Source: Sporopachydermia quercuum (taxonomy: Eukaryota). Taken from it: a stretch of 59,343 nucleotides of DNA. The notes beneath the pieces are model-generated. The model had not been told where the DNA came from. It did not search any database and worked only from the letters and a program-made list of their open reading frames with translations. The DNA lies in NCBI GenBank assembly GCA_001599295.1, contig BCGN01000003.1, positions 1,984,001-2,043,343 on the forward strand, read 5' to 3'. Shown one piece after another: positions 6,332-59,343 of this stretch. Position numbers and translations under genes: made by a program. Positions within the stretch are counted from its first letter, which is position 1. Each line of letters opens with the position of its first letter.

Positions 6332-6602
6332 AGTAGAAGCCTCAAACACGATGACGATGGATCCTTTATGATTCTTTTTGTAGATTGTTTCTACTCAACT
6401 TATGACCTATAATCAATAGTCAACATTAATCTTAACGTGACAAAAGAATTTCTATCTCGTACATTCCTTTGCTCTTTTAAAATCCTTATAACCACTCTAT
6501 GCTCATCGTGACAGTAAATACGAATCCTAAATATTTTTGTTGCTGCTTTGCTGACTTGATTTAAGCACCAGTTCCAACAAGTTTGCTGACTCCCATGCAT
6601 TT

Positions 6603-6639
6603 AATCTTTAGCCAATCTTTAGCCAATCTTTGGTCAATC
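6603..6639. repeat. Short tandem 11-mer (AATCTTTAGCC, ~3 copies, third imperfect) upstream of PXA1
   Basis: aatctttagcc aatctttagcc aatctttggtc aatc read directly; creates two CCAAT boxes. Confidence 0.6.
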
Positions 6640-35382: not shown

Positions 35383-38294
35383 TCAACGAGGAACTCACTG
35401 CACTGCACCTCTTGAAGCTGCATTTTGTTGTATAGCATACCTTCAGAAGAGAAAATAGGTTAGGGATAGGAAGTTTACTTAGCAGAGAGGAGTATTGTAA
35501 AGTGAATTAAAGTGAAAGTGGAGTGTATAGGAGAAGACGGGAAGAGAAAAGATGGTTAAAAACTGTTGATTATTGAATGTTTGGAGGAAGGATTTGTTTG
35601 ATAATGAAGTTTCGTAGTGGAATTCAGTAGAATTGAAGCAGAATTGAAGCAGTAGTTGGGTAATTTGAACTACCTAAATGCTGTAATTCTACTTGTTTTC
35701 TGTTTATAAGTGATTGAAAAGTTCATTACTTTCCATTGCTTTATTGCTTTATTACTTTCATTCTTTTCTGTTCTATGAATTGTCAACGATAAATTCCAAC
35801 ACTTTTTTTTCTTCATTTGTTTCTTTTGTTCTTTTCTTTCTTTTCTTTTCTACATTTGACTATAATACTAGTTGGAGATAAACATAGCATTTCTTATATT
35901 ATGTTAACTTGTGATGGTTTGAGCGAGACTTCTGTAGAGTGTAAAGGGAATAGGTAAAAGGAGTAGATAAAAGAAGATGTAAAAGAAATAGGTAATAGGT
36001 GACAGGCATTAGGTAATATGCCCTGAGTTGTTATTTCTATAAATGGCATTGATTTTGTTAATGCATAGAACATGGATAGGTTTTTTTGTTTATATTTACA
36101 CATTATTCTTTACTATGAATAATGAGTATTATGTTAAACGAAAGTTGACAATAGTCTTTCTAACGTTTCGTTCTAGTATTTCTTTTTGTTTCCTTACGGT
36201 AATTCCCTATAATAGTCCCTTACGGTATTTCCTTTTAGTAATTGCTAGAAGAATAAAATAACGGCTAAACAATTAATGATCAGAAGCCTTCAATAATATT
36301 TACCACATTGCCTTGGTGAATAATGTACTACCTTCTTTCTTCCTTCCTTTCTAATAAAAACCAATAACCTTTCCAATCCACCAATAATGAGCCTAGTCTG
36401 CTTTCTGCAAGAAAAGAGTTTTGACCACCTTTACATTCCTGAATCAAAAGTAACATCAGGCTGATCAGCAGTTTTGAAGAAAGCTGAAAGATATGATTTA
36501 TACAAGAAACTTCAACTAGTCTAGGGCTTTGATAGTCTAGTTGTTCAGACAAAGGAACAGATGGAAGCTCGATGGAGAAGCTCAATAGCGACTCTTCAAT
36601 TCACTGATTGATCCTTCATGACGGTTTATCTGGTGAAGACGACCACATTTCAATATTTGAATTGAACTATCAACATTTTCTCTGAATAGTGAAAAATTCT
36701 ACCGGTTACTGCTTACATTATTGTATACGATGCATATGTTGCTTGACAGTGTTACTATTGATTTTATTTACATCCATATCAAGAGATATATTACATTCAT
36801 GAGGTCAAGAATAAAGGACGTTATTTAATCTTCATTTAATCAGTCAATCGGACACTTCTACTAATTACCCTCAGATAGTTGGTCATGATAGATAGTAATA
36901 GCAATGTACTTGATAGTCGAATGCAGGATACATAGAATGTGGATTGAAGTAGTTGGCTGCTACATTAATTTATTTATCCTGTTGCTTAGTACTTAGAAAA
37001 CATCCAATTCTCATTCATCCACATCATTTCTACTCGCTGTATTTACCAATCAATCGCTTGATCAGTGCTTTTGATTCTCGATCTAACTACTAAGCCTACA
37101 GATCCTACAGATCCTAGATCATCCATCAACTACCAGTATGTTAGTAACACTCCAAACACATACAAGAAAACAACACAAATTGAAATCTGCTTATTATCGA
37201 AATCAGATAGGAGCGAAAGACGTTTGATGGTATTTTTGTCATCAAGAACTATTTATAGTCTCAGGTGAACTATGCTTTGTTACTGGAATCATCAGTTAAA
37301 TCAAGATATAATGCAGCCTCACTGGTCTGTGTATATGTAACTATCAATTGACGAGATAGTAAACAATACATGGAAAATACATACAAGGATAACATTACGA
37401 ACACAGCAATGTTGTTGGTTCACATTGCTACGCACATATTCATAATGAACGACATACATTGTGAATCAATTAACCAGAAAACGTGGAATCTACAAGGAGC
37501 CGAGACGAACTTCACTAAAGAACAGTAAAAAAGAAGATGAAAGAAGAAAGAAAATTTTTCATTATACAAGCAAAGACGTTTGTGCTAGGTAATTCATAGT
37601 GAGAATTACCCCCGTAAAATTGTAGATCTCCAGAACCACCTAAGGAGAACAATCACATTTTCGGACATTCGTAGGCGAGACTTGAAGTGGAACTAAGGTT
37701 TTTAATTAGAGTTTACGCAATGTCTCAAAACCTTGTGAATAAAGTGTGTAGTGTGATGTATATGGCTGCCATGAGATAATAAAGGTTCATCGCCGAAGAA
37801 TCAAACAAAAAGCATGGGAGAGGAAGGATGATAATAATAGGACAATGAACTAACAAGAATTAGACTCGCAATTGATTCATTTATTCGACGCTTGCTAGCT
37901 CGAGTTTTTCTGTACTAGAATAGCAATTAAAGAACTGGAATCATCGTATGATCAAGGGTCATCTGACGAAATAGAAATCATCAACTTCTTGCAGTATTCT
38001 CGGGATTATAGAGCACCTGATAAAGGAGAGAACTAAAAACAAGGAAGGAAATTGTGAGCTTCCATTCCTATTATTGTACATCAACGTTTAAGTTTGCTTG
38101 GTGCTGCTTTATCTTTAACGATCATACAAGCCTACCACCACATTCTCCAACATACAGCTCGTTGATGATAGCTATACCATATGAACTTATTTGACTACCT
38201 GGACACTCAATTACCTCCAGATAATTTCGAATTAACATCAGAGTTTGCATTTGAATTCCCGTTTACAATCCCATTTTTCAGCAAGCAGAACACA

Positions 38295-38972
38295 ATGAGT
38301 TTTAAAAGCATTCTTATTATCAATCCTAACTCATCACCATCCATTACTGAATCTCTTGAGAAAATACTGAGATCACCTGATGGATTCAAGTATGAATACT
38401 TCACTGGTCCTAAAGGCGGACCTCTGCAGATTGACAATGTAACAACAGAAATTACATCAGCTGCCAATTGTTTACCAGCTCTAGAGCCTTTGTTGGAGAA
38501 ACATGATGGATTCCTAGTTGCTTGCTATTCAGATCATCCACTAGTTCATATACTTAAAGAAAAGACTGATAAACCAGTATTAGGCATTTTCCAAGCAAGT
38601 GTCCTCCACTCATTGGCATTGGGTAAAGGTAAATTTGGCATAGTTACAACAGCTAGGATATGGGAGAAGTTGTTGGATGAAGCAGTTCACGCATATTTGG
38701 GTACTGAGTTCAATTTTGCTGGTACATTTACTACGGGCTTAGGAGTGTTAGAACTTCATGATTTACCTCCTGAGATCGTCCATAAGAAAATTGGAGAGGC
38801 AGCGAAAGCTGCTGTTGCAAATGGGGCCAAAGTCATCTGCTTGGGATGCGCAGGAATGGCAGGAATGGAAGAAGCTGTTAATGATGCTGTTGGTAAAGAG
38901 ATTCTCGTCGTTGATGGTGTTGTGGCCGGTGTTTCTTTACTCGCTGGGATGATTGATGCTTATTATTCTTAG
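38295..38972 (+). CDS. DCG1: Asp/Glu/hydantoin racemase family protein (Dcg1-like, allantoin/hydantoin racemase)
   Basis: ILIINPNSS..IT, FLVACYSDHPLV, PVLGIFQAS, ICLGCAGMAGME, VVDGV; both family Cys residues present. Likely start is ATG 38295 (MSFKSILIINPNS). Confidence 0.85.
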   Translation: MSFKSILIINPNSSPSITESLEKILRSPDGFKYEYFTGPKGGPLQIDNVTTEITSAANCLPALEPLLEKHDGFLVACYSDHPLVHILKEKTDKPVLGIFQASVLHSLALGKGKFGIVTTARIWEKLLDEAVHAYLGTEFNFAGTFTTGLGVLELHDLPPEIVHKKIGEAAKAAVANGAKVICLGCAGMAGMEEAVNDAVGKEILVVDGVVAGVSLLAGMIDAYYS

Positions 38973-41362
38973 TGTATTTGGTCTGAATATGGTGCAAGTA
39001 ATTCTTGATGAAATGTGATGTTGACCTGGAGTTTGCATGCTAGACATGAATAGTTATTCAATAAATTTGATTATAGAAGTGGACCCAAGGGCAAGTTATT
39101 TTGTAAATAATTAGAAGGGCAGAAATTGTGAACATGTCGTAAAGACAATAATTTCTCAGGATAGTTGTTCTAGTTGTTCTCATACAATCTGCCAGAACTA
39201 TGATAGGGTTTTTACTGNGAAAGCTCATTGATACTCTACTTCTCCCTTAATCGATGTAGGTTGCAAGAACTAAAACATAACTCTCTGTTGAATTCTTACA
39301 ACTTTAACACTTTTTTTTAATTCTTTTGAACCGTATTGCTATCACCGTCGTAATAATTTATCTTACATCATCGATATTAGATAAATCCTAGCTAGATGAC
39401 AATTAGGTAGCCAGTCATTTTTTCACAGAAGTATCTCATCAAACTGAAGGCCATACCGAATACTTGACTATTACTAATAAAACGCTTGCTCCCAATTAAT
39501 TCGATGTTGTAAAAATGAGTCCTTCTTTCGATCTCAACTACTTTCTAACTCATCACTCAAATTTTGACTCATATTTGACAAACTCGACACTTCAACCTAC
39601 AAACGAAGTATCAAGACATAGTTTCGATGTAACTACAAGATAGGCATTTCCCTGCTAGGAAATCAGCTTTGGAGCAAACTTTCCTCAGGTTTAGCCAATC
39701 ATAGTATATATTTTTATGAACAGTGGATATTTTGATGATAATCTGGGTCCAAACAAAGATAAACAAAAACATTAAGCATTGACTTGGTTTGGTGTGATTC
39801 AGTTCTGACGAATTTAAGGATTCACATGCATCGTAAATTTTTAAGTTCATTTGCCAAAGGTTTAGGTTTTGATTTCCTTTGAATTGTTAGTAGTGAAGCT
39901 CACATAAGAGGCCCTGGTGTCCTGATGAAGAACGGGGATATGTTCGCATTAACGAGAAAGTAAAACTTTCTTGTACATGAATCTATAATAAGTACACAGA
40001 AAATCTTTCATATAATACAATTAAAATTTAAATACTATTCCTGTATAGTAGAGATAATTAGAAGTATAATATGCTAAGCTTCGGTGTTGGATGACTCTGT
40101 AGCTCAAGCTCGAGTACTGATCGTAGGCTGTATTTTTTTCCGATCACAACACACAACCTATTAACGGAAACTTTAGTTCCCTTGCTCATTTATTTGGATT
40201 CTTCAATATAATTAGATAGATTCTCATTAGTTGATTATATAAATAGTTAGTATACTTCTGTTAAGAGAATCGTATACTGAATCGAGAGATTTAGTCAATT
40301 ACAGTACAATGAACTTTATTTGTATAAGAGATCTGACATACAGTTAAGAATCATTACATAGTACCCACAGCTGATACAACTGACACAAGAACCACAAGAA
40401 TTGAAATAGGTTAAATACAATCATAATATTTACCAGAATAAGCTTGTCCTGATAGACTTGAATACTATTAATTGCCGTTAGCTGTTCGTTGATATGTGAG
40501 AGGTCTTGATATTTGTATGATACTCAGTAATTATGTGGATGGTCCCCAATAATGAGAAGAGGTTAGAAACTATAAATCCAAAAGATGCAGTCAATAGTGT
40601 ATAAATTCAAATGAATGGTGAATACATGGTTGGTAATGTAGGGACAATAGTTCACCTATCATTCATAAATCCTGGCTATGGAATGAGAACAGCACTGGGA
40701 ATATTTCTAACGGGATAAATAAGGATTCTTATATACAAGTAAGAACCTTATGTTGGTATCTTTCTTCTGTAGAATCGTTCAAAAAACAAACTCATATTAG
40801 ACATATTAGACATTTCATTTGAAATATAAGGTTGTTCACTTTCAAACCTTATTTTACTTCAATGCAGTTCCATTTTTCTAACAGGCATAACAAACGCTTC
40901 TTCTCGTACTAGTTAATCCACTATACAAACAATTGATTTATATTCCCACAGCTACCCACTATAATCTGCAATAGAATTTAGATTGGTACCTACTTATTTG
41001 AAGACTTTATTAGGGTATTTTAGATCATACCCATTATTTATTTCCACCTAATCACTCTATGTTTTGTGCTTATCTAATCAGAATATAAACTCAAATTCAT
41101 CTACCTTTCTTATCTATCTCTATCTTTGTAGTTAACCCTCCAGTTTTCAGATCCTATTCATATTGCTATGAATTACTCAATCTTCATCTTCAGTGTTATA
41201 TGCAATCAATAGACCCATTGAAAACGCTACACTTCCAAAGATTTGATACCTGATAAGCAGAATATATCTGACTCCATCAGTATTTCCAGTCTTGCAACAT
41301 GTGGAACCAATTTCTCCCGCCTATTCGCTATTATTGCCATTTTCAATTCTATTAAAAGCAGA

Positions 41363-43699
41363 ATGACAAATAAACGGGTGCCTATTGCCTGTGCAGGCTG
41401 CAGAAACAGGAAGAAAAAGGTATGAAACAGCTTAGGGTGTCATTTACTGAAAAAATTATTAACCATTTTTCTTATTATTAAAATCAGTGTGACGGAAGAT
41501 TACCGCAATGTTCAGGTTGTTTAGAACGAGGTAAGACATGCGTGTATTCCTATGACGTGGATCGCAGGAAGTATGTAAAGAACTTTTCATTTTATGCTTT
41601 AATAATTACGATACTGACGATTGTTTGAAGACCCCCAAATAAACAATATGTCCAATCATTAACTGATCGAATCAAACAACTGGAACAAGAAGTAGCAATT
41701 CTGCGGCAAGAGAAACTGACAGCTAAAACAGATTCAATATCAGGAAGCAAAATAACCGATGAAATTTCTGAGTCTCAAAATGTTTCTATTATTTCTGACA
41801 GTATTTCAATTAATACAATCGATTCTTCCGAGCCTTCAAAAAGTGCAATCTCTGAAGTTAAAGGAAAACTTATAGTCACTGATGATGGACAAGTTCATTA
41901 TTTTGGATCTCGAAGTAATTTCCATTTACTGTCAGTACAAGTAGACAAGAAATCAAATACTTCTGTTTCATCTTTGAGGTCAAACGCAACATTAGCTGCC
42001 GAAAGATTAAACGGTCCTTTATCAGTACCACCTGATTTATTAGATCATTTATTAGGCTTGTTCTGGAAATGGCAGAATCCATGGCCCCAGATTGTTTCCA
42101 AATCTCATTTTCACAAAGCATTAAGAACCAAGGATCAGAGTTATTATTCCGAAACACTGTTATATTCAATCTTAGCTATAGCCTCTAGATATTCCGATGA
42201 TATAAGAACTCGATCTCATATCGATGATCCTANTAGTGCAGGTAGAAGCTACTTTGAATTTGCTAGAACATTGCTTATGTATGAAATTGAAGCTCCGTCT
42301 ATCACTTCAGTTCAATCAGCAGCTATGTTATCTCTATGGGCTAATGCTATCGATCATGAAGCTTCTGGCTGGCAATACTGTGGGATGGCTGTTCGGATGG
42401 CATTTGTTCTGGGACTTCATACTGANTGTGCACAGTCTCGAGCTCTTAATCTGATATCTGAGGAAGAAGAAGAGCTGAGATCAATTGTTTGGTGGGGTGT
42501 ATTCAATTTAGAAACGTATGTTAATGATCGATGCTATACTTGATTGATTTATAAGTGCTGTGTTAACAAGGTTAGCTTATTTAATTTGGGATTAGGAAGA
42601 ACTTTCTCATTACATGTTAAGGAAATAACGGCTCAAATGAGAACAGTGTCTTCATCTGGCATTGAATTTGAAAGCTGGGAAGACGGAGAAACAGGAATTA
42701 GATTTGAACACTCTTTTGTCGAATCTGCTAATATATATCTTTCTAAAATGTTCTTCAGTGTGTGCGATAATTTAGATCGTTTATATATGGAAGGATCCAA
42801 GCTATCAGCTAGTGAAATGAAAAGTATTTTCACTGATACCTATCTTCGTCTTACCACTTTTTATAAGGACTTACCTTCTTTTTTGCGGGTGTCTATTGGA
42901 TCTACTCCTTCTCCGCCACATGTTTATCATTTACAGTAAGTATTTTAGNTAGCATTTATGATTGTCATTATGCTATTTGTTTTTCTTTTCTTTTTCTTTT
43001 TCTTCTTTTTCTTCTTCTTCTTATTCAACTTTCTGACCAGTCAGTTTACAATATCATATATGCACCATTTTGGTTTCAAGACTGTTTCTGAAACCTTCTA
43101 GTGAAAGCCAGCTCAAAATGAAAAGCGATGGTTCCTTAGCTTTGTTAGAAACGTGTAAAAAATCTGCAGAATCAGTTGCTAATATTCTTCGACTTTATAA
43201 GCTACATTATACATTGGTAAGTTTATTATTTACAAAGTGAGTTTCATTGCAGTTTTTCTAACATTATCAGCGACATATTCCCGTCTGTTCCGTTCATTGT
43301 GCATTTACTGCTGCTGTTGTACATTTATATCTATTGATATCTGACGATTATGACGTTTTAAGGAGAGCCCTGCACAATTTTAAAATTTGCGTCAGTGCTT
43401 TACAGGATATGACTATTGCTTGGATGTGGAGTGAACGAGCATTAAAAACACTAGGTTTACTNGTATATGAATGGAATGTACTAGATAAATTAGATGATGA
43501 GTTGCGGTCAACACTTAAAATTGATCTAGTCTCCCAACCTGGGTTTGGCCTGGGTGAATCTGCTGAAGGAGAAATGGCAGGCAACGAAGCTCCTTCGGAT
43601 ATAAGCGACGCGTGGCAAAGATTTTTTGACTATCAAAGTGTTGACAATGAGTTCTTAGCGTTTTACAGATATTTCCTCGATGTACCCAGTGATTTCTGA
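41363..43699 (+). CDS. Zn(II)2Cys6 transcription factor with Fungal_trans domain (NirA/Nit-4-like), 6 exons, ~661 aa
   Basis: Exons 41363-41419, 41488-41570, 41631-42515, 42576-42935, 43045-43216, 43271-43699 join in frame. Product has CAGCRNRKKK|CDGRLPQCSGCLERGKTCVY, DRRK|PPNKQYVQSL, GQVHYFGSRSNF, GWQYCGMAVRMAFVLGLH, PHVYHLH|LQYH. Confidence 0.88.
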
Positions 43700-44188
43700 T
43701 GAAAATAGAGAATATATAGTAGAACAATGAAATAATTATTATAGAATAACCCAATAAAGTTTAGAATTGTAGTTTCAATATACAACTTAAAGGTTGATAC
43801 TAAATGAGTTCAAACTCTAATATTAACTAATGATAACTATAATCTAAAAATATAGCGTTGGATCATTCTCAAATACCAACCTCTATTTCTAATTCCTTAA
43901 CATAACATAAACAGTGGAACCAACAGGAGCTTTTATGTGTATTCCCTAATGGTGTTATGTTTCAGCGGCCAACTGCTTCCATTATTTCGGCCACTTATTA
44001 TNTCGGATGACTTAGTATGGTGAGCCACACCATCATGCACTAATTGGTATATGCCCATAAACATTAAACCTTAAAAGTTTTTGAGGTTTTAGCTAGCAAA
44101 ATACGAACGAACTTTAGATTGAGTTGAGAGCTAATTGGGATTTCGAGGTTAATTTGAAAAATAGAATAAAGCAAGTATATTATATCTA

Positions 44189-45235
44189 TTATTCATTACC
44201 ATTTGCAACAATCGTTTCAATTGGCTGATGTCTAGACAACAGAGTCTTACCGTTATCACCCTCGTTTACATCAGTAACATAGTTTTTAGGCTTGGTATCA
44301 ACAACCAGTCTTAGTAAATCAGGTCGGGAATAATGTCCAACAGGATCAGCTACTGCTTTAGCAAAAGCAATCTGATCTAAGTCGATGTCGCCGTAAACTA
44401 TACCTTGAAATGACTGATCAACGTCATCAGTTAATTGTCGTCCATCGGGTCCGAAAATCCTACAAGCTCCTCCACCTTCTAAATGGATGAAATGAGTTTC
44501 AGCTGGTTTCTGATCAGCAGTATTAGCTTCAATACCTTTTGCGGTTACTACTTGATTAGCTACCAAAACAAAAGCTCCTCCTTCCAGAGCATACATTCTA
44601 CTAGCAGTAATTTCATTGGCTTCCTGGGTAAATGACCAAGGCTCGTTACCAATGAATGGGCCGTTGAAAGGCCAGCATGCAATATGCACCTCTTCATTTT
44701 GACTATAAGAGTGATACTTAAGCAGAGGCTGATAATGTTCCCAGCAGTTCAGCATACCAATGCGACCAAGTTTTGTCTGAACAACGTTATTCAAAGAGTC
44801 TCCTGTTGACTCACCAAAGATAGTTCTCTCTAAACCAGTAGGTTTGATTTTTCTTCGATGCATGAGAACTTGTCCTTCGTCGGAAATAAGAACTTGAGCC
44901 ATGAAAAGACTGCTGTTATCTTTTTCACTGAATCCCAACGCAACAAAAATCTTGTTTTTCTNCGCTGCTTTTCTAATACTAAGAAATTCAGGACTGTCAA
45001 TGCTCATACTGTTTCTAAAGTACTTGTTTGTAGTAATAAAATTTTCCGGAAAACTCCCAGACCAGGCATAGTTAGGATATCCAGGAATCCATACTTCAGA
45101 GAATGCTATTAATGAGGCTCCATGGATAGCTGCTTCCTCAATATATGCAATTGTGGCCTCAGCTCCCTTTTGAATATCAAACCATTTGGGTTCAGCTTGT
45201 ACTATCGCAGCTTTCCATTGTCTGATTTCTGTCAT
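44189..45235 (-). CDS. Nitrilase (branch 1; arylaceto-/aliphatic nitrilase-like), ~348 aa
   Basis: Catalytic triad motifs FSEVWIPGYP (Glu), RRKIKPT (Lys), LNCWEHYQPLLK (Cys); C-terminal DPVGHYSRPDL. Likely start is ATG 45235 (track starts at an upstream TTG). Confidence 0.92.
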   Translation of the reverse strand: MTEIRQWKAAIVQAEPKWFDIQKGAEATIAYIEEAAIHGASLIAFSEVWIPGYPNYAWSGSFPENFITTNKYFRNSMSIDSPEFLSIRKAAXKNKIFVALGFSEKDNSSLFMAQVLISDEGQVLMHRRKIKPTGLERTIFGESTGDSLNNVVQTKLGRIGMLNCWEHYQPLLKYHSYSQNEEVHIACWPFNGPFIGNEPWSFTQEANEITASRMYALEGGAFVLVANQVVTAKGIEANTADQKPAETHFIHLEGGGACRIFGPDGRQLTDDVDQSFQGIVYGDIDLDQIAFAKAVADPVGHYSRPDLLRLVVDTKPKNYVTDVNEGDNGKTLLSRHQPIETIVANGNE

Positions 45236-45293
45236 TGTAGTGTAGTTTGTGATGTGAGCAGTAGGTAGTAATTTGAAGCAACTTAATATAAAA

Positions 45294-45628
45294 CTTATCG
45301 CTGAATCAGTGATTTTCAATCCGTGATGAATGGAAAAGTTGTGCTATAATTTCTGTAAAGTTGGTAGATAGCTATTAGGATTTCGAGATTTATATATCGC
45401 TGAATATACATTTTAATCAGACTATCTCTTATCTTCTCCTAGTCGGCTTTGCATTTCCCGCATTGTTTGTTCTTTATTTCCCGATGTGTATTTGCCGTTC
45501 GAGAGATAACAATTTAGTATCATAATTTTAGCTGCTTTAAAATTTATGGCTTATCTAGTTACTGTTGTCTAAGATATCTTATCTGATATACCTCCTCTCA
45601 CTTTTTATTGTCAGATCGGCCTGATAAG
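45294..45628. promoter_or_regulatory. Cluster of five GATAAG (GATA-factor/NCR-type) sites upstream of the nitrilase
   Basis: CTTATC at 45294, 45428, 45550, 45578 and GATAAG at 45623. Confidence 0.6.
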
Positions 45629-46283
45629 TATTGTAGGACGAGAAACCAAAATAGAGTTTATGGCATTCGAAATTAAGTATCAGAACCGTTCTCCGTTCCT
45701 ATCGAATAAAAAGCTAGCAGGTAATTACTAAAAGCTTGTCATTTTTTTATTTCTTATTTTTTATTTTTTTGTCTCATAATGCTGGCCCACCATTGAAAAT
45801 TGTAGTGATAGCCGTTGTCAGTAGAATATATCTCAGATGCTTGTCAAACTTGGATAGATGCTCATCGGCTAAGGGAAAAAAATTAATTTATGACTGTTTC
45901 CCTGTTTCTACTCATAAGAGATAAATATAAATGGAATAGTCTTTCAATATATCTTACACAAGACTATTTGTCTATATAGTTACTTTACTTAATTATAATA
46001 AGATACATAGATCAAGAGATCTAGATATTATACAGGTTAGAAGAATTTAAGTAAGTTGCCGCATGAATCGGATCCAATATTATAAACCATTTATCAAATG
46101 ACTTTCATGAAAAAAAGGTATAAACAAAATGCCTCTAAATCTATTGCGAGGTATAGGGCTTACATATATGTTGGTGTTGAGCGCAATTGAGATTAGAAAC
46201 TACAAAAAAAAGCACTAGAAGATAGATGAAAGCAACGAAATCTTGTAACCATTCAATGTCACTCTATAACAAAAAATCCGTAG

Positions 46284-47795
46284 TTAACTTTTTTCTGGCA
46301 GATTTTCAGCTTCAATACACTCAACATTTACGCTAGTAGAAGATTCTGAATCATGAATACTGACATCACCGAATAAGTATCCGATTTCTTCTAAAGCCAG
46401 ACCTTTAGTTTCAGGAAAAAACCAAAAGATACCCATAGAAACAATTGTAAGCACTATAAAAACAATGTAGTATCTCCAGCCTATGTTATTAAAAGCAGTC
46501 ACTGCAGGAGTTGTGAACAATAAAGACCCAACAAACATTCCACTAACTGACAAAGAGGCACCCTTAGATCGAATATGAGTAGGCCAAATCTCTGAAGTAT
46601 AGACATAACTGGAAGCGTCAATACATGAAGCAAAAAACAACAAATGAAAATAGATGAAGAAAACACCAGCACGATTTCCAGCAAGATTATCAGTGCCAGC
46701 AAACAAAGCTACCATTAACAATTCTCCCAAAATNGCTATCATTGTAAAGAACAACCCTGTAAGCAATAACTTCTTTCGTCCTACTTTGTCAAGCAGAAAC
46801 GCATTAATGGCATTGCCAAATATTCCCAGTGTAATGTAACCTGCCTGGAAAAACAATTGATCCAACGAACCGAATCCCAAAGATGCATATATAACAGGGC
46901 CATAATTTCCCACCACTTGAGTACCAGTACATTGAGCACAGAACATAGTCAGGAACCCAATCAGAGCCCGCTTGCGGTGGGGTTTCTGTTTGAATATACT
47001 CACCCAACTAGTTTGTTGGTTTTCGCTCCCAATCTTAGCCTTTAGATCTTCAAATTCAGATTCATAGTCAATGCGCAGCCTTTTCAAAGATGCAAGTGCC
47101 TGATCTTCTCTTTCTTTTTCTATAAGCCATCTAGGTGATTCTGGTAAGTACCAAATACAGCAGCATAAGATAATAGGAGCAGGTAGGAATAAAAATAAAG
47201 GAACTCGCCATTGTGCTTGATCATTGGATACAAAATAGAATCCTACATCAATCCAATTCACAAGTGTATAGCCAGTCATAATAAACACTCCATGAAGACC
47301 AACCAGAAGACCTCTAGTATTAGTAGGAGCAATTTCTGTTTGCCATAATGGTACCAGCATTACCAAGGCCCCAATACCCATTCCTGTAATAACTCTAGAT
47401 ACTAAAAGCATGGCAATGTGAACTGAAGCTCCCATCAATATCCCTCCAACAATACAAACTCCGCAGGCCAAAGAAATAGCCATTCTTCTTCCAAACTTCT
47501 CAGTGACCATTCCAGATGCAAGTGTGCCTATTAANCCCCCAGCTTGAAAAACACCATTAAATGCTCCAACAAGCTGACTAGCATTAGATCTGGTATCTAA
47601 ACCAAAATAACTGATGAAACTTGGTTGACCTGTTATAGTTCCCGATACACCAGAAGCGTATCCGTAAGTAATACTGCCCAAGCCGGCAAATATAATTATC
47701 TGAGCAGCAGTTAGTATGTGTTCTACAAGCTAAAATGACTGGAGTAACCAATATCTGCTGAAACATACCAACACTGTATATGTAGAAGCTTTCAT
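46284..47795 (-). CDS. MFS sugar-porter family transporter, 2 exons, ~480 aa
   Basis: Exon 1 47795-47769 (MKASTYTVL); intron 47768-47700 GTATGT...TACTAAC...CAG; exon 2 47699-46284. Motifs EKFGRR, EIAPTNTRG, PESPRWL, DKVGRK, SEIWPTHIRSKG, PETKGLALEEI. Confidence 0.9.
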
Positions 47796-49166
47796 TGTTA
47801 CTGATGTTTAACTCTGAAATGCCAATAGACTGATTCTCTGATTTAGCTATTCACTAGGATGTCTAGAAGGTGCACACCTCTGGTCTGATTATCAGATAGA
47901 AAAAAAATTATATTGTCTGAATATAGTAGCGGTTTTTCCAGCAAATGTCTTCTATTTAAATACTCTAAACAGCTTAACTGTTTTATAAATCAATGCAAGT
48001 AGACCATGCTATCCTTNCTCCAAATGAGATAGCTATCCATTCATCATAGTTATCTTTTTCCTCTTCTACACGTCTTATCGCTGTGTCAATTGTAATGCTC
48101 TCCATAATTTCTACTACTTCCAAACTACTAAAAGAACTCCTTGATCTATGAACATGTTTTCGAATCTGCTGATAAGCCATGTTCTAGCACTTATTGCTTC
48201 ACTCTGATAACTCATTTCATTGCGCTAAATACAATTCCGCAAAGGATAGGTTCGCTTAATGTTAAGCCGACATTTAAGGTTTTATATTGGTTCTGGGATA
48301 GGAACAACTAAGGAGAAGCGGTGGTAACGAAGAGTTGTAGCGGACCTTNATATTTNATCCCGCAAATGTCCTAGAGTAAGATACTAAATTCATCAAAATC
48401 TCCTGATTTCAAATTATCTGATTATATGCTTATTCATATTGTTCTAGCTATTGAGTGATATATAAGTATCTTCCCGTACTACTTATGTACATTTAAGATT
48501 GAGTAGTTCCACAGTTTGCATAACATTTGTGTGGACATAGACCTACCATGCATCTACGTACATCAAACTCAAAGTCTATTTTCTCACCGGAGTCTTTTAT
48601 ACTTAAGGTGTAGTAGATGGTCTTCTANAAAGCATAGGTAATACATATAAATATCTACTAATAAGCGCACATTTTCACACCGTAGGAAGATCTGAATATC
48701 GAATCAAGGATAAAAATAAGGTTGATTGAACTGAATTGCCAATAATGCTGGTGGATTGATTAGAAGTTCAGGTCTATTTCAATATATCTTCATCTCTACA
48801 GCGTCAATAATAACATGAAGGGATAACTTTATTGCCGTGGAAGTTGAATATCTAGCGATAGTGGTTTCAGTACAGTAGACTGTATAAAATGTTAAATCTT
48901 GAATCTATTGAAGTTTCTAAGTAGCTATTGAAAATAAATTTCTATTGGATGTTGAGTACTAAGAGCGCAGTTGGAAACAAGGCAAAAGAACTATTCAGTA
49001 GTTAATATTACCGATAGACAGGCCAACCAATAGGAGCTACCCAGTCCGATTGCGTCCTGTTGGAAACGGTACAACGCCTACGCCCTAGTTAAGGAAAAGA
49101 GCTTGATGAATGTACTTAGTTTTTGAGATACCTTAAGGTTGAAATGTAGAAATATCGCTGTTAAAT

Positions 49167-50252
49167 CTAAAATGCAATTTCACCAGGAAGATCCTTCAAC
49201 CTCGCAGCAGCTTGTTCTGCAGTAAAATCTCTTTGGGTCTCACAAAGAAGTTCAAAGCCGACCAAGAACTTTCTGACAGAAGCACTTCTTAATAATGGTG
49301 GGTAGAAGTGGATATGGAAATAAGAAACGTCGTACTCTTCATCGGAGCATTTGAAAGGACTCTGATGTATGCCCATTGAATAAGGAAAAGAGCATTTGAA
49401 TAGATTGTCATATTTAGCTGTCAATTTTCTCAAGATCTCAGCCAAATCTTCCTTCTGTTTCTCAGTAAATTCGCTGAGTGAATGTGTTTTGGATTTTGAT
49501 AGTAGCAAGGTCTCGAAAGGCCAGACTGCCCAGTAAGGAACTACCACCACGAATGAGTCGTTCTCTATAACCACTCGCTCATGTTTCTTGAGTTCCAATT
49601 TCAGGTAATCCTCCAGAAGATGGGCCCCATTATTCTTCTTAGAGTATGCAATTAGGNGATCTAGCTCAGTTCTTATCTCATTAGGTACAAAGTCTACAGC
49701 CCATACCTGACAATGAACATGAGGGTTTGAACATCCCATTGCTGCTCCTTTGTTTTCAAATATTTGGACATACTTGTAGGCAAATTCGGTGTCATCCCTC
49801 AATCGGTTGTAGGTCTCTTGCCAAGTATCAACTACATTTTTGACATCTCTTATAGGTAGAGAAGATAAAGTGAGATTATGTTTCGGAGAAAAACAAATAA
49901 CGAAGCATTTCCCTCGTGCTCCCTCTATTCTAAAAAGTTGACTCTCGACTGAGCTAGCTTCCTCCTCAACGTGATATTCTGGTTGATCTTGCCTAACCGC
50001 TGGAAAATCGTTCGGAAAGACATACGTAGATTTGTAGTTGGGGTTTACATCACCAGTGATTCTTTTATTTCCAGGACACAGGAAACATTTGGGATCATAT
50101 TCTGGAATGTCTTGTTTGGAGATTTCCTCCTGTTGTCCTAGCCAGGGTCTTTTGGTTCTGCGGGGAGAAACCAAAACAAATAGTCCAGTCAAAGGGTTAA
50201 ACCTTCGATGCGAGTAATCAGTCAGATCAAATGTTTGAGCCATAATGGTCAT
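49167..50252 (-). CDS. GAL7: Galactose-1-phosphate uridylyltransferase
   Basis: SHRRFNPL, RPWLGQQE, YDPKCFLCPGN.R, FENKGAAMGCSNPH.HCQ, VPYWAVWPFET, YDNLFKCSFPYSMGIHQ, FYPPLLRSASVRKFLVGFE. Start may be 50243. Active-site motif reads HVH. Confidence 0.93.
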   Translation of the reverse strand: MTIMAQTFDLTDYSHRRFNPLTGLFVLVSPRRTKRPWLGQQEEISKQDIPEYDPKCFLCPGNKRITGDVNPNYKSTYVFPNDFPAVRQDQPEYHVEEEASSVESQLFRIEGARGKCFVICFSPKHNLTLSSLPIRDVKNVVDTWQETYNRLRDDTEFAYKYVQIFENKGAAMGCSNPHVHCQVWAVDFVPNEIRTELDXLIAYSKKNNGAHLLEDYLKLELKKHERVVIENDSFVVVVPYWAVWPFETLLLSKSKTHSLSEFTEKQKEDLAEILRKLTAKYDNLFKCSFPYSMGIHQSPFKCSDEEYDVSYFHIHFYPPLLRSASVRKFLVGFELLCETQRDFTAEQAAARLKDLPGEIAF

Positions 50253-52930
50253 GCTAAATAAGTTGCTTCTTTATCTTTTGAATTCGCTGAGTCTAAGATT
50301 ACTATTTATGAANCTCGATTCCGAAAACTGGTTGAGCTGCCATACATCTATGATGCATTTTAACTGGAGAACATTATGTCATGCATATAATACAATACAG
50401 ACAAAACAAAGGGCACACAACCTAGTATGGCTGGCACATCTTGGAACTCGAAGACTTGAAAATAAGAACGGGCGATAGCCATGACTTGTTTCTCCATCCA
50501 CCGCACAACCACTCACTGTGATCAAGAACTGTAAAAGTTCATTATTACCGCCAGTTTCTTTCGGGAAGCTGAACTACCCGAACCGTAGGACACAACAAAG
50601 AATAAATCTCATTCCAAGCACGATTAGAGTTTTATGGGTACATGTAAGGCTCGATATTTAGAGTGATGTTTGGAACACTCAAATTGAAACGTGAAATATC
50701 AGGATCCAGACAGAATTTTGGAACTGACACATGTTATTAGAGTCTGAANTTAACAAAAACTGAAGCATTGTGTTGAACTTCTTGTTAGATGAAAGTACTA
50801 GATTAGTGTCCATTGGAGACAGAGGGCCTGGCTCCTCACCTTTATGGATCTAGTATGAGGTTGGGTTAGGTATGGGGAGGCAGTACCAAACCCAGTTATC
50901 GTAAGTGCTTCGTAACACTCGCAATACAATTCTAGTCACTTATTAAGTTTGAACTAATTTTAAACATAAGCCTTAGAATATAAGGCTTTTATGGTATATA
51001 AAGTTGGTACTCTNATTCCGAGAAGACTATAAAACTAAACCTTCCACNAGAAGTCTCGAACTGTTACATGGTTCAAATCAAGGTACCGTATACCTTACCG
51101 ATAAGAATATGCCAATCTTTAACAAGAAAAGAGATCTGGCAAAATTGAAACTGCTTTTACAGTTCACCCCAAAAACCGTTTCAAACGCTTGCGTACATTC
51201 TAAGATATACTCAAGAGAGATTGGCATCTTTAGCTACTTCTTTTACGTCTAAATCTCAACTATACTTCGTAAAGTAAAAATCTGAAATAAAACTTGTTTT
51301 GTCCTTGTCAACCTACATTCTTTGCAAGTTTAAGGTAAGCAGAAGGAGCGCAAAATAATCATAAGTATTTGATCGTATCTGCTATTGAAATTTGCAGAAA
51401 AATACGGCTGAAAATTACGAATTTGTGTATCTGCTACTGTTATGGAGAAAAGTAGGACTAGCAAGAGGTAAGATGAGTAGTCATTGCTTTCGGGTACGGC
51501 TACCATCTGTTGGCAACTCTCGAATGTGAAGAAATTATTTGAACGAGAACTCCAGTTTTTCATATGCTGGCCATTAATGATCTCTTTAGGATCTGTGATT
51601 TCTTTATTTTCAGGATTAACTTCTGAATAATACTAAAGCTTCAGAACGAAAAGTGAGACTTCCGACGTTTAGTTTGAAGAAGGNAACTAGCATCAGAAGT
51701 GAAGTCAAATGTTTCTGNCCTGCAAGAGATTTGGTGTNTCTCAACATTTCTTGTATGAAATAATTTAAATTTGAATAAGAATATAGTTGGAATCGTGCTT
51801 GGACTTGCCATTTCATCTATCCGGAACAACATGAGAACGGAAGCCTTACATTTTNATGCTTCTCAGCATTTGAAGTAATTTACCCTTAANTAGATTAGTA
51901 TGTAATAAACACACTTGTGAATACAATGATATTCCACTCTCATGATGCACCAAAAGTCAGCATAAATTACCATAATTGAGAGTGTGTGAGATGGTTGAGG
52001 AAAGAAAAAACTGCTCATCGTCTTTTGCAAATTGGAATAGGCATCCGGGTCTTTCCAGATGAGGGCNATAGCAGTTGGAAGGTTAGTAGGATATTTTATG
52101 ACTGCTTTTTGATTGACAAGATAGTAAAGTTCTTGCTCATCTACTTTTCACCTATTGCTAACTGTGAATGACTGAGCACCCACCTTCAAGAAAGAAGGAA
52201 AGTAGAAATCCGAATAACAAATTTTTGACTAATTGATTGCATCTACAGGAAACCTCATCAAGGCGACGGACGCTCTTATCTCTTTTCAGTTGAACTTTTG
52301 TTCGTATATGTTGGTAAACCTAATTGAGAATTTTCTAGTTAGCAAGTTAGCACATTGGGATTTCTTTCCTTGTAAATTGACCTGTCAAAAGACCAGCTAC
52401 AGCTCAGTATGATGCGAGCAAAAATACTGAGATGAANATATATGTAGATTCAGGCAATAGGTCCCAAAATAGATAGGCCCCTGTAAAAGGATTACCTTTG
52501 TTCGATGTCCTGGAGCCCCAGGGGATTGTCTGAAGGGATNAAATTAGATATTAATTTAACCGATTTCCTATTTCTGTTTGACAGAACTTTAGTTTGATGT
52601 GACACAAGCTGTTACACATCTGACATCTGTTGGTTCAACAGTTCTAATGTTTCAAATCTATTTCATTTTGTTATCCTTTCAATTATTAGTAAGGCTTATA
52701 GTTTCAGAATACCACAATAACTCAAATAACTGTAAAATCTGTTAAAGTTATCCGAAGTAAGAGGCAGTGATAGTTTTCCAGAAAAGAGCTAGAAAAATGA
52801 TGTGCTCAGATTGTACGAAGAATATAGATCGGAGCGGTAGGGAGAAGTCCGGAAGCGAACCTAGCTATTTTGAGATAAACATGANATCTGAATCTCGGTA
52901 TTTTTGGTCTACCAGAGAACAGAAAACTAA

Positions 52931-54493
52931 TCAGGTCTCTGAAATGTTTGAATATACATAGCTTCCATTTCCGGGAGGTGAGACAATAATCGCATTATCA
53001 ATCTCTTCCATGGTTATATTGGGGTAGTGCTTTCTATAATACTTCTCCACCAATACATCTTTCAAATGTTGAACTTCATCTTCCGNGATCAAATGAATAG
53101 TGCAACCTCCCCAACCTGCTCCAGTTAACCTTGATCCATAGCTGCCATTTTCTTCAGCTAAATCACACAGCTCCTCGATTTCAGGGCAAGAACAATCAAA
53201 TAAGCTAGAGCAGGCATCTTGAGATTGACGCAAAATGATTCCTAACTTTGTCAAGACATCAATAGCTGATCCAGAAGATTGCAGCTTTTCAGCTTCACTC
53301 AACGTATCAAGGAACTCTAGGACTCGAAGACTCTCGGAGTATACATGTCTTGCTCTTTTGAACAATTGGAATATAGAGAATCTAATTGGAAACTTCGATA
53401 GGAAGATTTGTTTGGTTTCTTCTTCAGTCTTTCCAAGAGCTTCAGCTATTTGATCCAAAGTGTACCCGCTTTTATATTGAAAGCATTCTCCGGTTAATTC
53501 CAGCATTTTATTCAATCTTCTCTTTCCCTGAAAAATTGAGCCATCCCATCTTTCTTCCCCTTGAGTTATGTAATATTCATCCATAAAGTTTCTTAAAGTG
53601 CCAGTGTTTAAATTACCATCTTTTGGCAATGTCAGATCAAACTTCTTGGCCAAAACCTCTGCGGCCATGCTAACTTCTGTCACTCTCAGATTNTATCTAA
53701 CTGGAGCAGTCTCATGTTTATTAGAGGTAATCAATGTATTTGCAATCAAAAATGTAATTTGAGGGTTTAGTTTCGGGAACNTGAAGGCCTCACTAGCTAG
53801 CTTTGGCTTGAAATGAACATATAAAGCACTTCCTTTTTCACCACAAATTGAAGCAGATTGATCTAAACCTCCGGTGCTCACTCCGACATAACTTTCCGAG
53901 ACAACTGCCATTTCCACCAGCTCATCACGATTGATGTTTTNGATGCCATTGCTTTTTAAGATCGCAACGATACCACAACAAACAAAAGCGGCACTAGAGC
54001 TTAGTCCTCCCCCTGTAGGAACAACACCATCGGCCAGCACCTTCATTCCGCAGCATTTCTTGATGCCGAACCTTTGGCCTTTCTTTTGAAAATACTCCTG
54101 GGCTACAATAAGGGCACATTTGAAATAGTTAGACCAATCAGACTTGGTTTGATCAATGGTAATCAATGATCCATCTTGTGGAACTTCAATCACACGAGAA
54201 GGAAAATTTGGACTTGTATTTGTCAATTCAATGGTCGTACCTTCCTGTAGTGTCTCTACTGCCATAATCACATCATTCTCAATGGCCATTGGCACAACTG
54301 AGAAATGAGAGTAGTCAACATGCTCTCCAATGATATTGACTCGGCCAGGACTTCTTGATACAAATTCAGGCTCTTTGTGATAAATGTCCTTGAATTTACT
54401 AAGTAAAGCTTTGTACCTTGGGATTTGATGGTTCGAATTGGAATATATCTCCTCCAACGAGNTGGAGGTTGGAACATAGACCTCCTTTTCCAT
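52931..54493 (-). CDS. GAL1: Galactokinase
   Basis: RSPGRVNIIGEHVDY, PTGGGLSSSAAF (retains the Ser-Ala pair that non-catalytic Gal3 lacks), GG.DQ, SNKHETAP..NLRV, RARHVYSESLRV, GSRLTGAGWGGC. Confidence 0.93.
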   Translation of the reverse strand: MEKEVYVPTSXSLEEIYSNSNHQIPRYKALLSKFKDIYHKEPEFVSRSPGRVNIIGEHVDYSHFSVVPMAIENDVIMAVETLQEGTTIELTNTSPNFPSRVIEVPQDGSLITIDQTKSDWSNYFKCALIVAQEYFQKKGQRFGIKKCCGMKVLADGVVPTGGGLSSSAAFVCCGIVAILKSNGIXNINRDELVEMAVVSESYVGVSTGGLDQSASICGEKGSALYVHFKPKLASEAFXFPKLNPQITFLIANTLITSNKHETAPVRXNLRVTEVSMAAEVLAKKFDLTLPKDGNLNTGTLRNFMDEYYITQGEERWDGSIFQGKRRLNKMLELTGECFQYKSGYTLDQIAEALGKTEEETKQIFLSKFPIRFSIFQLFKRARHVYSESLRVLEFLDTLSEAEKLQSSGSAIDVLTKLGIILRQSQDACSSLFDCSCPEIEELCDLAEENGSYGSRLTGAGWGGCTIHLIXEDEVQHLKDVLVEKYYRKHYPNITMEEIDNAIIVSPPGNGSYVYSNISET

Positions 54494-55129
54494 ATTACAG
54501 TATCTCCTCTAATCTATGCTTAATATAAACAGATCTTTTTTTTCTTCCGTTGTTTCCATATCCCTAACTCACTTCAGGTATTCTAAGTCTAGAAAAAGCN
54601 TTTGGGGAAAGTGATAATCNTACTGACCTTTTCAATCTTTATGTTTTAGTCGAAACTACAACGTCTTCACTCAGCTGCAAGGTATATAAAATCATAAAAA
54701 GATCCNTTGAGTACAAAGTTTCCAGTGACGCTCTGGATGGCGGTTTAGCTTTTTGCAATCCCTTGGGTATACATCTAAATCCTGTCATATTCATAAGGTT
54801 TCGAGCTAATATTTAATTTAACTTCTATTAACTTTTGAATTAAGCGAAGATAGTATTAGAGTTATGTGCGGATGATACCGCGAAANCTGACAATTTTTGT
54901 AGAAATTTCTNCAAGTTAGGNTGTGATAGGTNTTACATTAACTTGTTTAAAGAGAAATTGAAAAGTGAATGATAACAGAAGTGCGGTTAGGACCCATCAA
55001 AAGAGAAACATTCAAAAGTTGCTATAAATAGAGAGCCCTAGTTCCAGAGAGCTGCTAGATTCAGACTTGAAAATAGGTTGATCATCTTTACATATGGTTT
55101 CAAGAATAGTCAATGTTACAATAGACGGC

Positions 55130-56595
55130 TTTGAAATTCTAAGTCAGGAGTTTTTCCGAGAAGCCCCATACTGAAACTAGAGACTACTAGTGGGAGATAT
55201 ATACGCATACTTTNTTTCGTACGTCAAACACTTCATTCTGATGCGGACAGAAAGTGTGTCTGATTTCTCCACACTTCAACCCCTATGAGAAAATTGATCT
55301 GANTACTTTTTTCTTTCCTTTTCTTATTTTGCTGCCAGCAATGGTCCCGATATGTTTGTTACTGGATCTGTTTTATTCCAAATTGGTTATGAGGCAACTA
55401 ATGTTCTTCTCAGTATGGTTATTGCTGATGCTTCTGGATTGCAAAATAAAGCTGACCCCTTGGGGGTTTATTGGTTTTCCTTCTCTCTGAAATGCGTTTT
55501 GCTGCTCTTTGGCAGGTAATTGTGGAGATGGATATTTGGATTTGCTTATATTGAAACAGTAGTACTTTTTTCCATTGCAGGAATACTCAAATGCAACAAG
55601 CGGAAGTCTGTGAAGGCTGGGTTCTTGGAGATTGATCNTTCTGGAAAAGCATTCTGGTAGTCCATTGTTTACTANGTTCAATAATTTGATATTGTTGGAG
55701 TTTTTCTTTTGATAGGTTGCTCTCCTAGTATGTTTCTTGCCGTTCAGCCCAGACACATATAGCAGAGCAACCTATCAAAGAACTACTTTATTGCAATGAT
55801 AGTAAGAATTTTTCTGTTCCCGATCTTTGCGCTATGGAAAGAACACTGGTAANAGAAACATTTTGTGGAGTCTCATCTTTTCAAAGATAAAACTGTGGTA
55901 GAAGTTTGTCTTCCATCAGCAGTTATATTCTTCTACTACCATTTATGAGAATCTTAATTTTATNATTTTGTCATGGTGGTTTACCTCTAAGCTTCATAAA
56001 TGCTNGGAATACAAACTAGACATATTCTGTTAGATCTGTAATCAGTGCTTCACTGGTTGGGGGTTATATTCGCAAGTTCTCTTGGTTTAAGTGGAATTGA
56101 TTNGGTTTCTGAATGCACTTATACATGATTGGTACAGGACTGACATATTTCCAGAGAGGAAATAAGACATTCAGTATGATGTGATATATCAAATATTTTT
56201 GGAGTTACCGTTGACGTTGCATTTTTGCATGCTGCTAATATGACTGATGTTGCGATGATGATCGCACTTTTAGAGCCGTGGGAGGAATTACGGTAGCTAT
56301 TGAAGCAGCTTTATCTGGTGCTATTTATTGCAATCCGTTTCCTATTGGTTTGTAGGGAAATCTACCTGATGACGTAAAGCTATACTATTTTTATATTTAT
56401 GCTGGAGGATATGTTGTTCAGATAGACTATCTAGGTGGCAGCGATACCAGAAATTCTATTAATTATTTCGGGAGCCAAGCGCANAAATGTTCTTACATTA
56501 CGGCTTATGCATCTTGATGTTAGGAATTTTTGGTATCATAGTTTAGAAGGACTATAATATTCTGGATACGAAGCGTAAAGGGATAATTTTATTGT
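55130..56595 (+). pseudogene. Degraded siderophore-iron MFS transporter (ARN/SIT1/MirB family)
   Basis: Collinear fragments in shifting frames with stops: AASNGPDMFVTGSVLFQIGYEATNVLLSMVIADASGLQNK (from 55331), WRWIFGFAYI (55523), AFW*SIVY*VQ*FDIVGVFLL (~55640-55711), FIAMIV, GTGL, VAMMIALL, IEAALSGAIY, IYAGGYVVQIDYLGGSDTRNSI (~56395), KDYNILDTKRKG (~56550). The 5' boundary is approximate. Confidence 0.72.
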
Positions 56596-57793
56596 CCAAG
56601 TCTACAATGTAGAATTGAGTTATTGGATTAATATCAATGGTAGATTGATATTGATAGCACATGAAATAAATAGTGAAATATTAGAGTTCGTATGATCTGG
56701 AACTATTAGCATTCCTAATATTCCAATAACTTGGTTTGATTCTCAACTGATAGATCCTAAAGCATGAACGTTTAGAGCCTGAAACATATTATATGGCTTT
56801 TTCTTTTGGGTACAGAGTTTCGAATAGAAAAATGAAAGATGGTGGAGAAGTTGCCCACTTCTGGGTAGTATGAACTGGATGAGGTGGCACCGTTTGGAGT
56901 GATTTTGGGATATAACATTATTATTACTTGGAGTAAATTTAAAAAGAAACAGAAATGAGAGAATCAGATATGTTCAAAGTTGAAACTATGTTTTAATCTA
57001 TTCATCAGAATAGTTAGATTATTAAATATATTTGGTTGAATGAAATCTTTAAAGATAATGTTGAAATAGAAGAGACTGTGCCCCGATGATATATAACAAT
57101 ATATTTAATTTTAGCTCGCAGAAACTTTACATGTTTGAAAACCCTAAAAGCTTAATTAAGTATCACTAAATCTAAAGTGTCTATATTCATCGAAACAACG
57201 TACATAAAGCTTTAAAATATAGCAGAGATCGATTAGAACAAATAAGAAAATAAATCGCTGAAATATTTATATATTCATATATCTAGATATCAATAGATAT
57301 CGTGCAATGAGANGAGAAGACCACAGATGCAGTGGTAGTTTNAGGTTACGTATAAACTTTCACATTCATGTTGAACCTTATATCAATAACTTTATCCGGA
57401 ACGGAAGCAAAAAATGCATTTTCGATCCGAAATTTATTACGGTTCGGAGGTAAATTCAACCTTTATGAATGATAATTCATATATCAAACGCAATTTGAAA
57501 GATAAAACTCCTTATTCCAATAATTTCACTCTATTTTTAGATTTTAATGCTGTCTAGCAGTAGGCAATGANAATAGCAAGTTGACATGGCATTGCTTGAA
57601 ATGATGAACTCGAAAATACTGCTTCTAAAGATTGCAATAAACTATTAAGAGATTTGGAAAGGATTGTGNAGTATAAATTAAAGGTCGCTGAATCCTGGAT
57701 TACTCTGAGGATCATCATCTCTTCAGATAATCAACGGAACGCTTATAAACCATCTATCTAGCTATACAAGGATTCCAGTAAATTACCTTTACA

Positions 57794-58753: not shown

Positions 58754-58811
58754 CTAGGCTGTAGAGTACATATTGAAACAATTCTAACTTCTATAATAAA
58801 TTTCATGGCTC

Positions 58812-59342: not shown

Positions 59343-59343
59343 G

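Follow-up and report, generated by a model that had tools for sequence, protein, structure and literature searches.

Most of what is known about fungal nitrilases comes from synthetic substrates, and which compounds they act on in nature is largely an open question. Among the fungal clusters in which a transcription factor, an enzyme and a transporter are encoded together is the one for quinate. Another is the nitrate cluster crnA/niaD/niiA, found with its transcription factors in the yeasts Kuraishia and Ogataea (PMC3879985; here and below, papers are cited for the available portions of their text). Growth on nitriles as a nitrogen source, with uptake as a limitation, has been described for Exophiala oligosperma R1 (PMC2610300). 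Here we analyse a locus of Sporopachydermia quercuum, in a window of 59,343 nucleotides (nt) (contig BCGN01000003.1 of assembly GCA_001599295.1, positions 1,984,001 to 2,043,343; "the window" denotes this whole stretch), in which genes for a Zn2Cys6 transcription factor (TF), a nitrilase and a transporter of the sugar porter family adjoin one another. Comparison of sequences leads us to regard the three genes as an old, nitrogen-repressed catabolic module that would import and hydrolyse a polar nitrile (probability roughly 0.6).

The source genome comprises 16.4 Mb in 15 contigs, and its gene content, like the transporter tree described below, points to a budding yeast. All four genes singled out by the first-pass annotation of the window, i.e. 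this trio and a Dcg1-like racemase gene, are present and intact. The trio is as follows.

41363-43699, plus strand: TF with Zn2Cys6 and Fungal_trans domains (PF00172 and PF04082), 661 amino acids, six exons
41363-41419, 41488-41570, 41631-42515, 42576-42935, 43045-43216 and 43271-43699, plus strand: exons of the TF gene
44189-45235, minus strand: branch-1 nitrilase, 348 amino acids, no intron, PF00795 at 159.6 bits
46284-47795, minus strand: major facilitator superfamily transporter of the sugar porter family with a site of non-hexose type, 480 amino acids, 69-nt intron at 47700-47768

The trio occupies 6.4 kb, as had been claimed (6,433 bp from the start of the TF gene to the start of the transporter gene), and the nitrilase and TF genes stand tail to tail, 490 bp apart. 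Searches of the genome itself returned a single match each for the nitrilase and the racemase, while the remaining transporter matches show 23-33% identity and the remaining TF matches have E-values of at least 2.6e-7.

The nitrilase possesses the features of branch 1, namely the CN_hydrolase domain, the Cys-Trp-Glu motif (here CWEHYQPL) and the Glu-Lys-Cys triad, which is intact (E47, K129 and C164), as the first-pass annotation had it. Among proteins of solved structure, those nearest to it are nitrilases or cyanide hydratases rather than amidases. Its best PDB matches come out nearly equal, with E = 2.5e-80 for a fungal cyanide hydratase and 5.9e-80 for bacterial nitrilases, and Foldseek, used with a model of pLDDT 84, ranks the Gloeocercospora cyanide hydratase (38-40% identity) about equal to the bacterial enzymes (42%). 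The protein belongs to a subfamily of about 55 fungal sequences at 50-64% identity, beyond which a plateau at 45-49% follows within the best 120 of 1723 matches. CWEHxQP occurs in 55/55 of the top matches, whereas the Gloeocercospora enzyme reads CWENMNP, in agreement with the distinction between CWEH and CWEN drawn earlier. Predicted cyanide hydratases are more than 60% identical to a characterised one (PMC6928751); because of the CWEHxQP motif and an identity of 38-40% to the Gloeocercospora enzyme (9OFA), below that level, we rejected cyanide hydratase as the identity of the window protein and assigned it to the branch-1 nitrilases. It misses the cut-off of TIGR04048, the Nit6803/NitC nitrilase model (202.7 vs 502.6 bits), and no characterised member of the CWEHxQP subfamily was identified among the matches listed. 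Its putative reaction is the conversion of a nitrile to the acid and ammonia.

The transporter gene could be mistaken for a broken one, an interpretation that we rejected, since the in-frame stop of the unspliced reading is removed by the intron. [quoted passage not shown] Alignment to GlcP and STP10, with the residue columns counted in 49 homologues, reveals a different picture in the binding site, where most of the residues of transmembrane helices (TM) 5, 7, 8, 10 and 11 that we take to be the canonical sugar contacts have been replaced. The Gln of TM5 is Gly in 49/49 homologues and the Trp of TM10 is Tyr in 45/49; the first Gln of TM7 and the Asn residues of TM8 and TM11 are retained in 0/49, and the Asn of TM7 and the Asp of TM1 in at most one each. 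Only the second Gln of TM7 persists among the canonical contacts (46/49). The same proteins have a conserved set of their own, i.e. His145 (48 of the 49), Asn274 (45), Asn305 (44), His361 (42) and Asp/Glu370 (49). The residues expected of a hexose transporter are thus largely missing, and the earlier description of a repurposed sugar porter is well founded. We infer that the protein is not an ordinary sugar carrier and that it would carry a polar solute other than a hexose, perhaps with no coupling to protons. The available part of PMC8955749 holds nothing on this transporter clade.

In the TF gene too, stops suggested a broken reading frame, which was rejected because they fall in introns; there are five GT-AG introns, and the spliced frame is open over 661 amino acids. 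The gene model is supported by 36% identity over 598 amino acids to a Penicillium protein (P0240), and introns 2, 3 and 4 agree in codon position and phase with those of an orthologue at the metagenome locus L002 (see below). The product carries the six-Cys binuclear cluster and the PF04082 region typical of Zn2Cys6/Fungal_trans regulators. The NirA site pattern was found in the 1 kb upstream of none of the four genes.

The first-pass annotation regarded the trio as a unit and held that genes which never co-occur in other genomes would speak against this. We judged adjacency by accession numbers and locus tags, among the matches listed, and this scope applies to all statements about other genomes. 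A subfamily nitrilase could be seen together with a transporter at 46% identity or more in 24 assemblies, and in 20 of them the two genes lie within two gene positions of each other:

Kuraishia capsulata: tandem nitrilases KUCA_T00003132/3133, transporter 3134
Acaromyces ingoldii (basidiomycete): PWN92434/PWN92433
Fusarium, 12 strains: oxysporum (3), proliferatum, mexicanum, avenaceum (2), sp. VM40, lateritium (4)
Exophiala bonariae: LTR84_011651/2
Exophiala mesophila: B0A52_05935/4
Exophiala oligosperma: PV06_01746/01747
Rhinocladiella similis: RBB50_002963/2
Knufia peltigerae: KAJ9625454/5
Further Chaetothyriales assembly: KAK6369913/2

These 20 cases, 12 of which are Fusarium strains, come down to about five lineages, with members of three ascomycete classes and a basidiomycete showing the adjacency. 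Four more distant transporter matches (33-40% identity; three Fonsecaea species and Aspergillus californicus) were left out of the 24, and none of the four is adjacent to a nitrilase. The TF and the nitrilase co-occur as well. In Penicillium, the TF N7465_002517, the sole match of an insensitive search (1 of 1173 candidates, E<=1e-15), is two tags away from the subfamily nitrilase N7465_002519, and in P. viridicatum both genes are on contigs of identical length (126,470). Among the best 80 of 575 metagenome loci only L002 holds a subfamily nitrilase (57% identity; others 40-47%), and there a TF orthologue (E = 2e-65) stands tail to tail with it, as in the window; this locus begins inside the nitrilase, so it covers the downstream side of that gene. 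In these 80 loci neither the transporter nor the racemase had a match at E<1e-4. Linkage conserved across distant genomes, which is what a fungal catabolic cluster should display, was thus found pairwise, for nitrilase and transporter and for TF and nitrilase, and the synteny test set beforehand was passed in this pairwise sense. The module is not special to budding yeasts, most copies being found in filamentous fungi and black yeasts.

Linked pairs may have a gene between them (e.g. N7465_002518, EWZ81045). Among the other neighbours, F. avenaceum and Fusarium sp. VM40 have a short-chain dehydrogenase at a distance of two positions from the nitrilase, and L002 has, beyond the TF (4342-7229), genes for an arginase-family protein and for a zinc alcohol dehydrogenase; no recurrence of these three was seen among the linked loci.

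The top nitrilase matches (60% identity to Pezizomycotina, 54-55% to Kuraishia) suggested a recent horizontal transfer from filamentous fungi, which the trees do not support. In a FastTree tree of 49 transporters the window protein groups with those of Kuraishia, Hyphopichia, Saccharomycopsis and Pichia and six other sequences (support 1.0), and in a tree of 51 nitrilases the window copy branches first in the subfamily and that of Kuraishia next (support 0.70 and 0.89), with the caveat that both trees are open to bias from long branches. The nitrilase of Acaromyces is placed, with weak support, inside the ascomycete sequences. On account of the trees and of the adjacency in Kuraishia, we favour an old, vertically inherited nitrilase-transporter pair that would have been patchily lost.

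The first-pass annotation had also pointed to GATAAG sites upstream of all three genes. We counted them in the 600 bp upstream of 16 genes, against 1000 dinucleotide shuffles each. The sites in question, and two other motifs considered below, are:

41069-41074, 41109-41114 and 41252-41257: GATAAG, TF promoter
45294-45299, 45428-45433, 45550-45555, 45578-45583 and 45623-45628: GATAAG, nitrilase promoter
45444-45460: CGG-N11-CCG, nitrilase promoter, among several CGG triplets
45579-45587: ATCWGATAA, nitrilase promoter
47889-47897 and 48414-48422: ATCWGATAA, transporter promoter
48074-48079 and 48171-48176: GATAAG, transporter promoter

The nitrilase has five sites within 400 bp of its start, compared to a shuffle mean of 0.48, and 0/1000 shuffles reach five. 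The TF has three (p 0.016) and the transporter two (p 0.096). Sites are therefore present at all three genes as stated, but only the nitrilase count is clearly beyond chance, given that an unrelated TFIIIA-like gene also has three (p 0.004). Upstream of the nitrilase there is also a mild excess of CGG triplets (9 vs 4.9, p 0.031). The genome has seven ammonium-transporter matches over several contigs, which is many for a yeast. In 700 bp upstream, the shorter GATAA occurs 7 times at the nitrilase and 6 times at the transporter, compared to 2, 8, 3, 3, 5 and 3 times at six of the seven ammonium-transporter genes and twice at each of the two iron permeases.

Taken together, these data suggest the following scenario. 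When preferred nitrogen is scarce, a GATA activator of the AreA/Gat1 type would open the promoters, and the Zn2Cys6 factor, probably sensing the substrate or the product, would turn on the nitrilase and the transporter; the latter would import a polar, membrane-impermeant nitrile, which the nitrilase would hydrolyse to an acid and to ammonia, used as nitrogen. The parts of this scenario differ in strength. The nitrilase and the transporter very probably act on the same compound, and it is likely that the resident TF controls them both, whereas for the purpose of the module we lean towards nitrogen gain. The sugar-porter scaffold and the lesser need of small lipophilic nitriles for a carrier lead us to guess, tentatively, at a nitrile that bears hydroxyl groups or a sugar, for instance a cyanohydrin or a nitrile glycoside. 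It is tempting to go one step further, into more speculative territory, and to imagine a pathway predating the split between budding yeasts and filamentous ascomycetes, in which sugar-bearing nitriles would be imported intact and their nitrile group hydrolysed to ammonia without release of hydrogen cyanide. The candidate substrates of such a pathway, named with equal reserve, would be cyanide-sugar cyanohydrins or cyanogenic and hydroxynitrile glycosides, taken up via the rebuilt sugar porter.

Several observations weigh against the proposed nitrogen-scavenging module. The full trio was seen in no other genome. Three of the 24 assemblies (Colletotrichum gloeosporioides, LTR10 and F. lateritium ACHAQD) have the nitrilase and the transporter apart, and in one more the adjacency is ambiguous (CVL06347/CVL06341). 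Orthologues of the transporter are also present in Hyphopichia, Pichia, Saccharomycopsis and the Aspergillus niger group, for which the matches listed include no subfamily nitrilase, so the transporter may work without the nitrilase. In the loop after the catalytic Lys the window nitrilase has Gly134 (44834-44836), a position occupied by His in 30/33 aligned subfamily sequences, and this substitution may alter specificity or activity. Finally, the GATAAG counts at the TF and the transporter are not significant over 16 genes, and the TF of L002 has a single GATAAG in 465 bp upstream.

The same three genes might also serve a different end, i.e. the detoxification of cyanide adducts or of plant or microbial nitriles, or the use of the acid as carbon, with a transporter that may export the acid rather than import the nitrile. 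This would be in keeping with the near tie between cyanide hydratase and bacterial nitrilases among the PDB matches, with the name "cyanide hydratase" that automatic annotations give to several subfamily members, with the plant-associated habit of many fungi that carry the module, and with the absence of the TM1 Asp of proton symporters, which may indicate a two-way facilitator. We nonetheless consider it unlikely, since CWEHxQP in all of the top 55 matches and the low identity of the window protein set them off from the cyanide hydratases, and the dense GATAAG array upstream of the nitrilase fits nitrogen control. That array could itself be interpreted otherwise, as a target of an iron-responsive repressor of the SreA/Fep1 type, in which case the module would handle iron-cyanide complexes or iron starvation. 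The motif of the SreA regulon, ATCWGATAA (PMC2610380), indeed has three of its five sites in the window within the nitrilase and transporter promoters, compared to 0.08 expected in 1.4 kb from the genome rate (923 in 16.4 Mb). However, the motif was chosen after inspection of the promoters, it is common genome-wide, at about 2.4 times its reversed control, it is missing from the 700 bp upstream of both FTR1 iron-permease genes, and it is found upstream of one of six ammonium transporters. This makes iron control very improbable, and we regard nitrogen control as the more probable reading of the GATA sites.

The locus is subtelomeric. The contig end at 2,048,561 consists of an 11-bp repeat that also opens contig C7; the repeat unit, AGTTGGGAGGT, is found at the end of C3, the contig of the window (L083 5124-5218), and at the start of C7 (start of L087), and the trio must accordingly be 17-23 kb from the telomere. 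Unrelated catabolic genes gather in such regions, and next to the trio there is a pair that invites a different assignment of the transporter:

49167-54493, minus strand: GAL7 and GAL1 in tandem, GAL7 ending 1.4 kb from the transporter start

The three genes could then be chance neighbours, and the transporter the galactose permease of the GAL7-GAL1 pair; the CGG-N11-CCG at 45444 corresponds to the Gal4-type pattern. Yet most of the hexose-contact residues of the transporter are replaced, so a galactose permease is unlikely, and the adjacency of nitrilase and transporter in three ascomycete classes and a basidiomycete largely refutes chance; as a whole, this interpretation has hardly any probability left. 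As for the GAL genes themselves, no GAL10-like frame was seen in the 2.7 kb between GAL7 and GAL1, GAL1 is single-copy, and a stand-alone aldose 1-epimerase is encoded at G000:C3:1726940, which together suggests an unfused GAL10.

The remaining gene put forward as a possible part of the module was the racemase:

38295-38972, plus strand: Dcg1/allantoin-racemase-like gene, 225 amino acids, PF01177

It is separated from the TF gene by 2,391 bp, in line with the 2.4 kb reported earlier. A fourth member that racemises a chiral nitrilase substrate or product might be suspected from this proximity, from the retention of both catalytic Cys residues in its PF01177 domain and from five GATAA in its 600 bp upstream (p 0.041), where GATAAG occurs 0 times. 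The protein is, however, the only Dcg1 match in the genome, the solved proteins nearest to it are allantoin racemases, and in S. cerevisiae DCG1 is one of the genes of the allantoin (DAL) cluster (PMC3419248). A weak test, covering the top 5 of the 150 relatives listed, revealed no link to a nitrilase, three of the five being unnamed and two from basidiomycetes absent among the nitrilase matches listed; none of the metagenome loci mentioned above offered a link either. The gene is probably a bystander outside the module, and its membership quite unlikely. Of the nitrile-scavenging module as originally drawn, the pairwise co-occurrence, the repurposed transporter and the CWEH distinction stand; membership of the racemase and a specific kinship of the TF to NirA are not supported.

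Other features of the surroundings are recorded here for completeness. Housekeeping genes fill window positions 1-36000 (peroxisomal ABC transporter, TFIIIA-like, ATG13, SKI3, RPC82, NOC3, NudC-like, ADI1 and QCR2, named from translations or Pfam). Single-base Ns, possibly heterozygous sites, increase toward the telomere, from 0.16 per kb (1-38000) to 1.2 (38001-49000) and 4.3 (49001-59343). An RTA1-like gene and the 3' part of a second Zn2Cys6 gene occupy 57794-59343, and a 99.9%-identical second copy of 58004-59343, with the 5' part of that gene, lies closer to the contig end (L083) and may be an assembly duplication. The C7 subtelomere (L087 509-9047) encodes an aldo-keto (xylose-type) reductase, a cytochrome P450 and a Zn2Cys6 factor, named from translations, and contains a partial aldose-epimerase match with a stop.

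A conserved transporter and a conserved regulator beside one nitrilase clade provide three handles on its natural substrate, since inducers can be screened via the TF, uptake via the transporter and activity via the enzyme. The module gives a probable role to a sugar-porter clade that pipelines label glucose or inositol transporter, and it sets apart some 55 proteins that bear the label "cyanide hydratase" or "arylacetonitrilase" as a subfamily of their own, with possible use in biocatalysis. The ancient sugar-nitrile pathway, if true, would provide a clade of fungal nitrilases with the substrate it acts on in nature and with an importer dedicated to nitriles. A literature search, with subscription journals mostly and supplements outside its scope, found no description of this cluster; the string "nitril" is nowhere in the main text of the paper on the Kuraishia genome (PMC3879985), and a survey of yeast nitrilases, in its available part, covers presence and absence, not gene neighbours (PMC12506670).

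With respect to the systems described before, the window enzyme shares its fold (TM-score 0.83) and Glu-Lys-Cys triad with the cyanide hydratase of Gloeocercospora sorghi (PDB 9OFA), and differs from it in sequence (38-40% identity, CWEHxQP instead of CWENMNP) and in its linkage to a transporter and a TF. The arylacetonitrilases and aromatic nitrilases of bacteria (Pseudomonas fluorescens EBC191 NitA, PDB 6ZBY; 8UXU; 22SF) have the same fold at 42% identity, and 22SF even carries CWEHVQP, but they constitute a different subfamily, the fungal proteins at 50-64% being set off from the plateau near 45-49%. The transporter has the fold and the TIGR00879 signature of sugar porters (GlcP 4LDS, STP10, GLUT3, XylE), with the TM1 Asp, TM5 Gln, first TM7 Gln, TM7 Asn, TM8 Asn, TM10 Trp and TM11 Asn replaced. 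Comparable in physiology is Exophiala oligosperma R1, the paper on which, as far as available, names no gene (PMC2610300); another strain of that species carries the nitrilase-transporter pair PV06_01746/01747. Known fungal clusters of TF, enzyme and transporter likewise unite genes for a regulator of the Zn2Cys6 class, for a catabolic enzyme and for a dedicated carrier, and have GATA sites upstream; the DAL cluster is subtelomeric, as the window trio is (PMC3419248). The window locus differs from them in having a nitrilase as its enzyme and, as its carrier, a sugar porter whose site is of non-hexose type. An acquisition from filamentous fungi has been described for the yeast nitrate cluster (PMC3879985); for the window locus, the nitrilase and transporter trees favour vertical descent. 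The layout is of a known kind, that of the fungal catabolic cluster, while the module of nitrilase, transporter and TF is real, conserved in its pairs and apparently undescribed.

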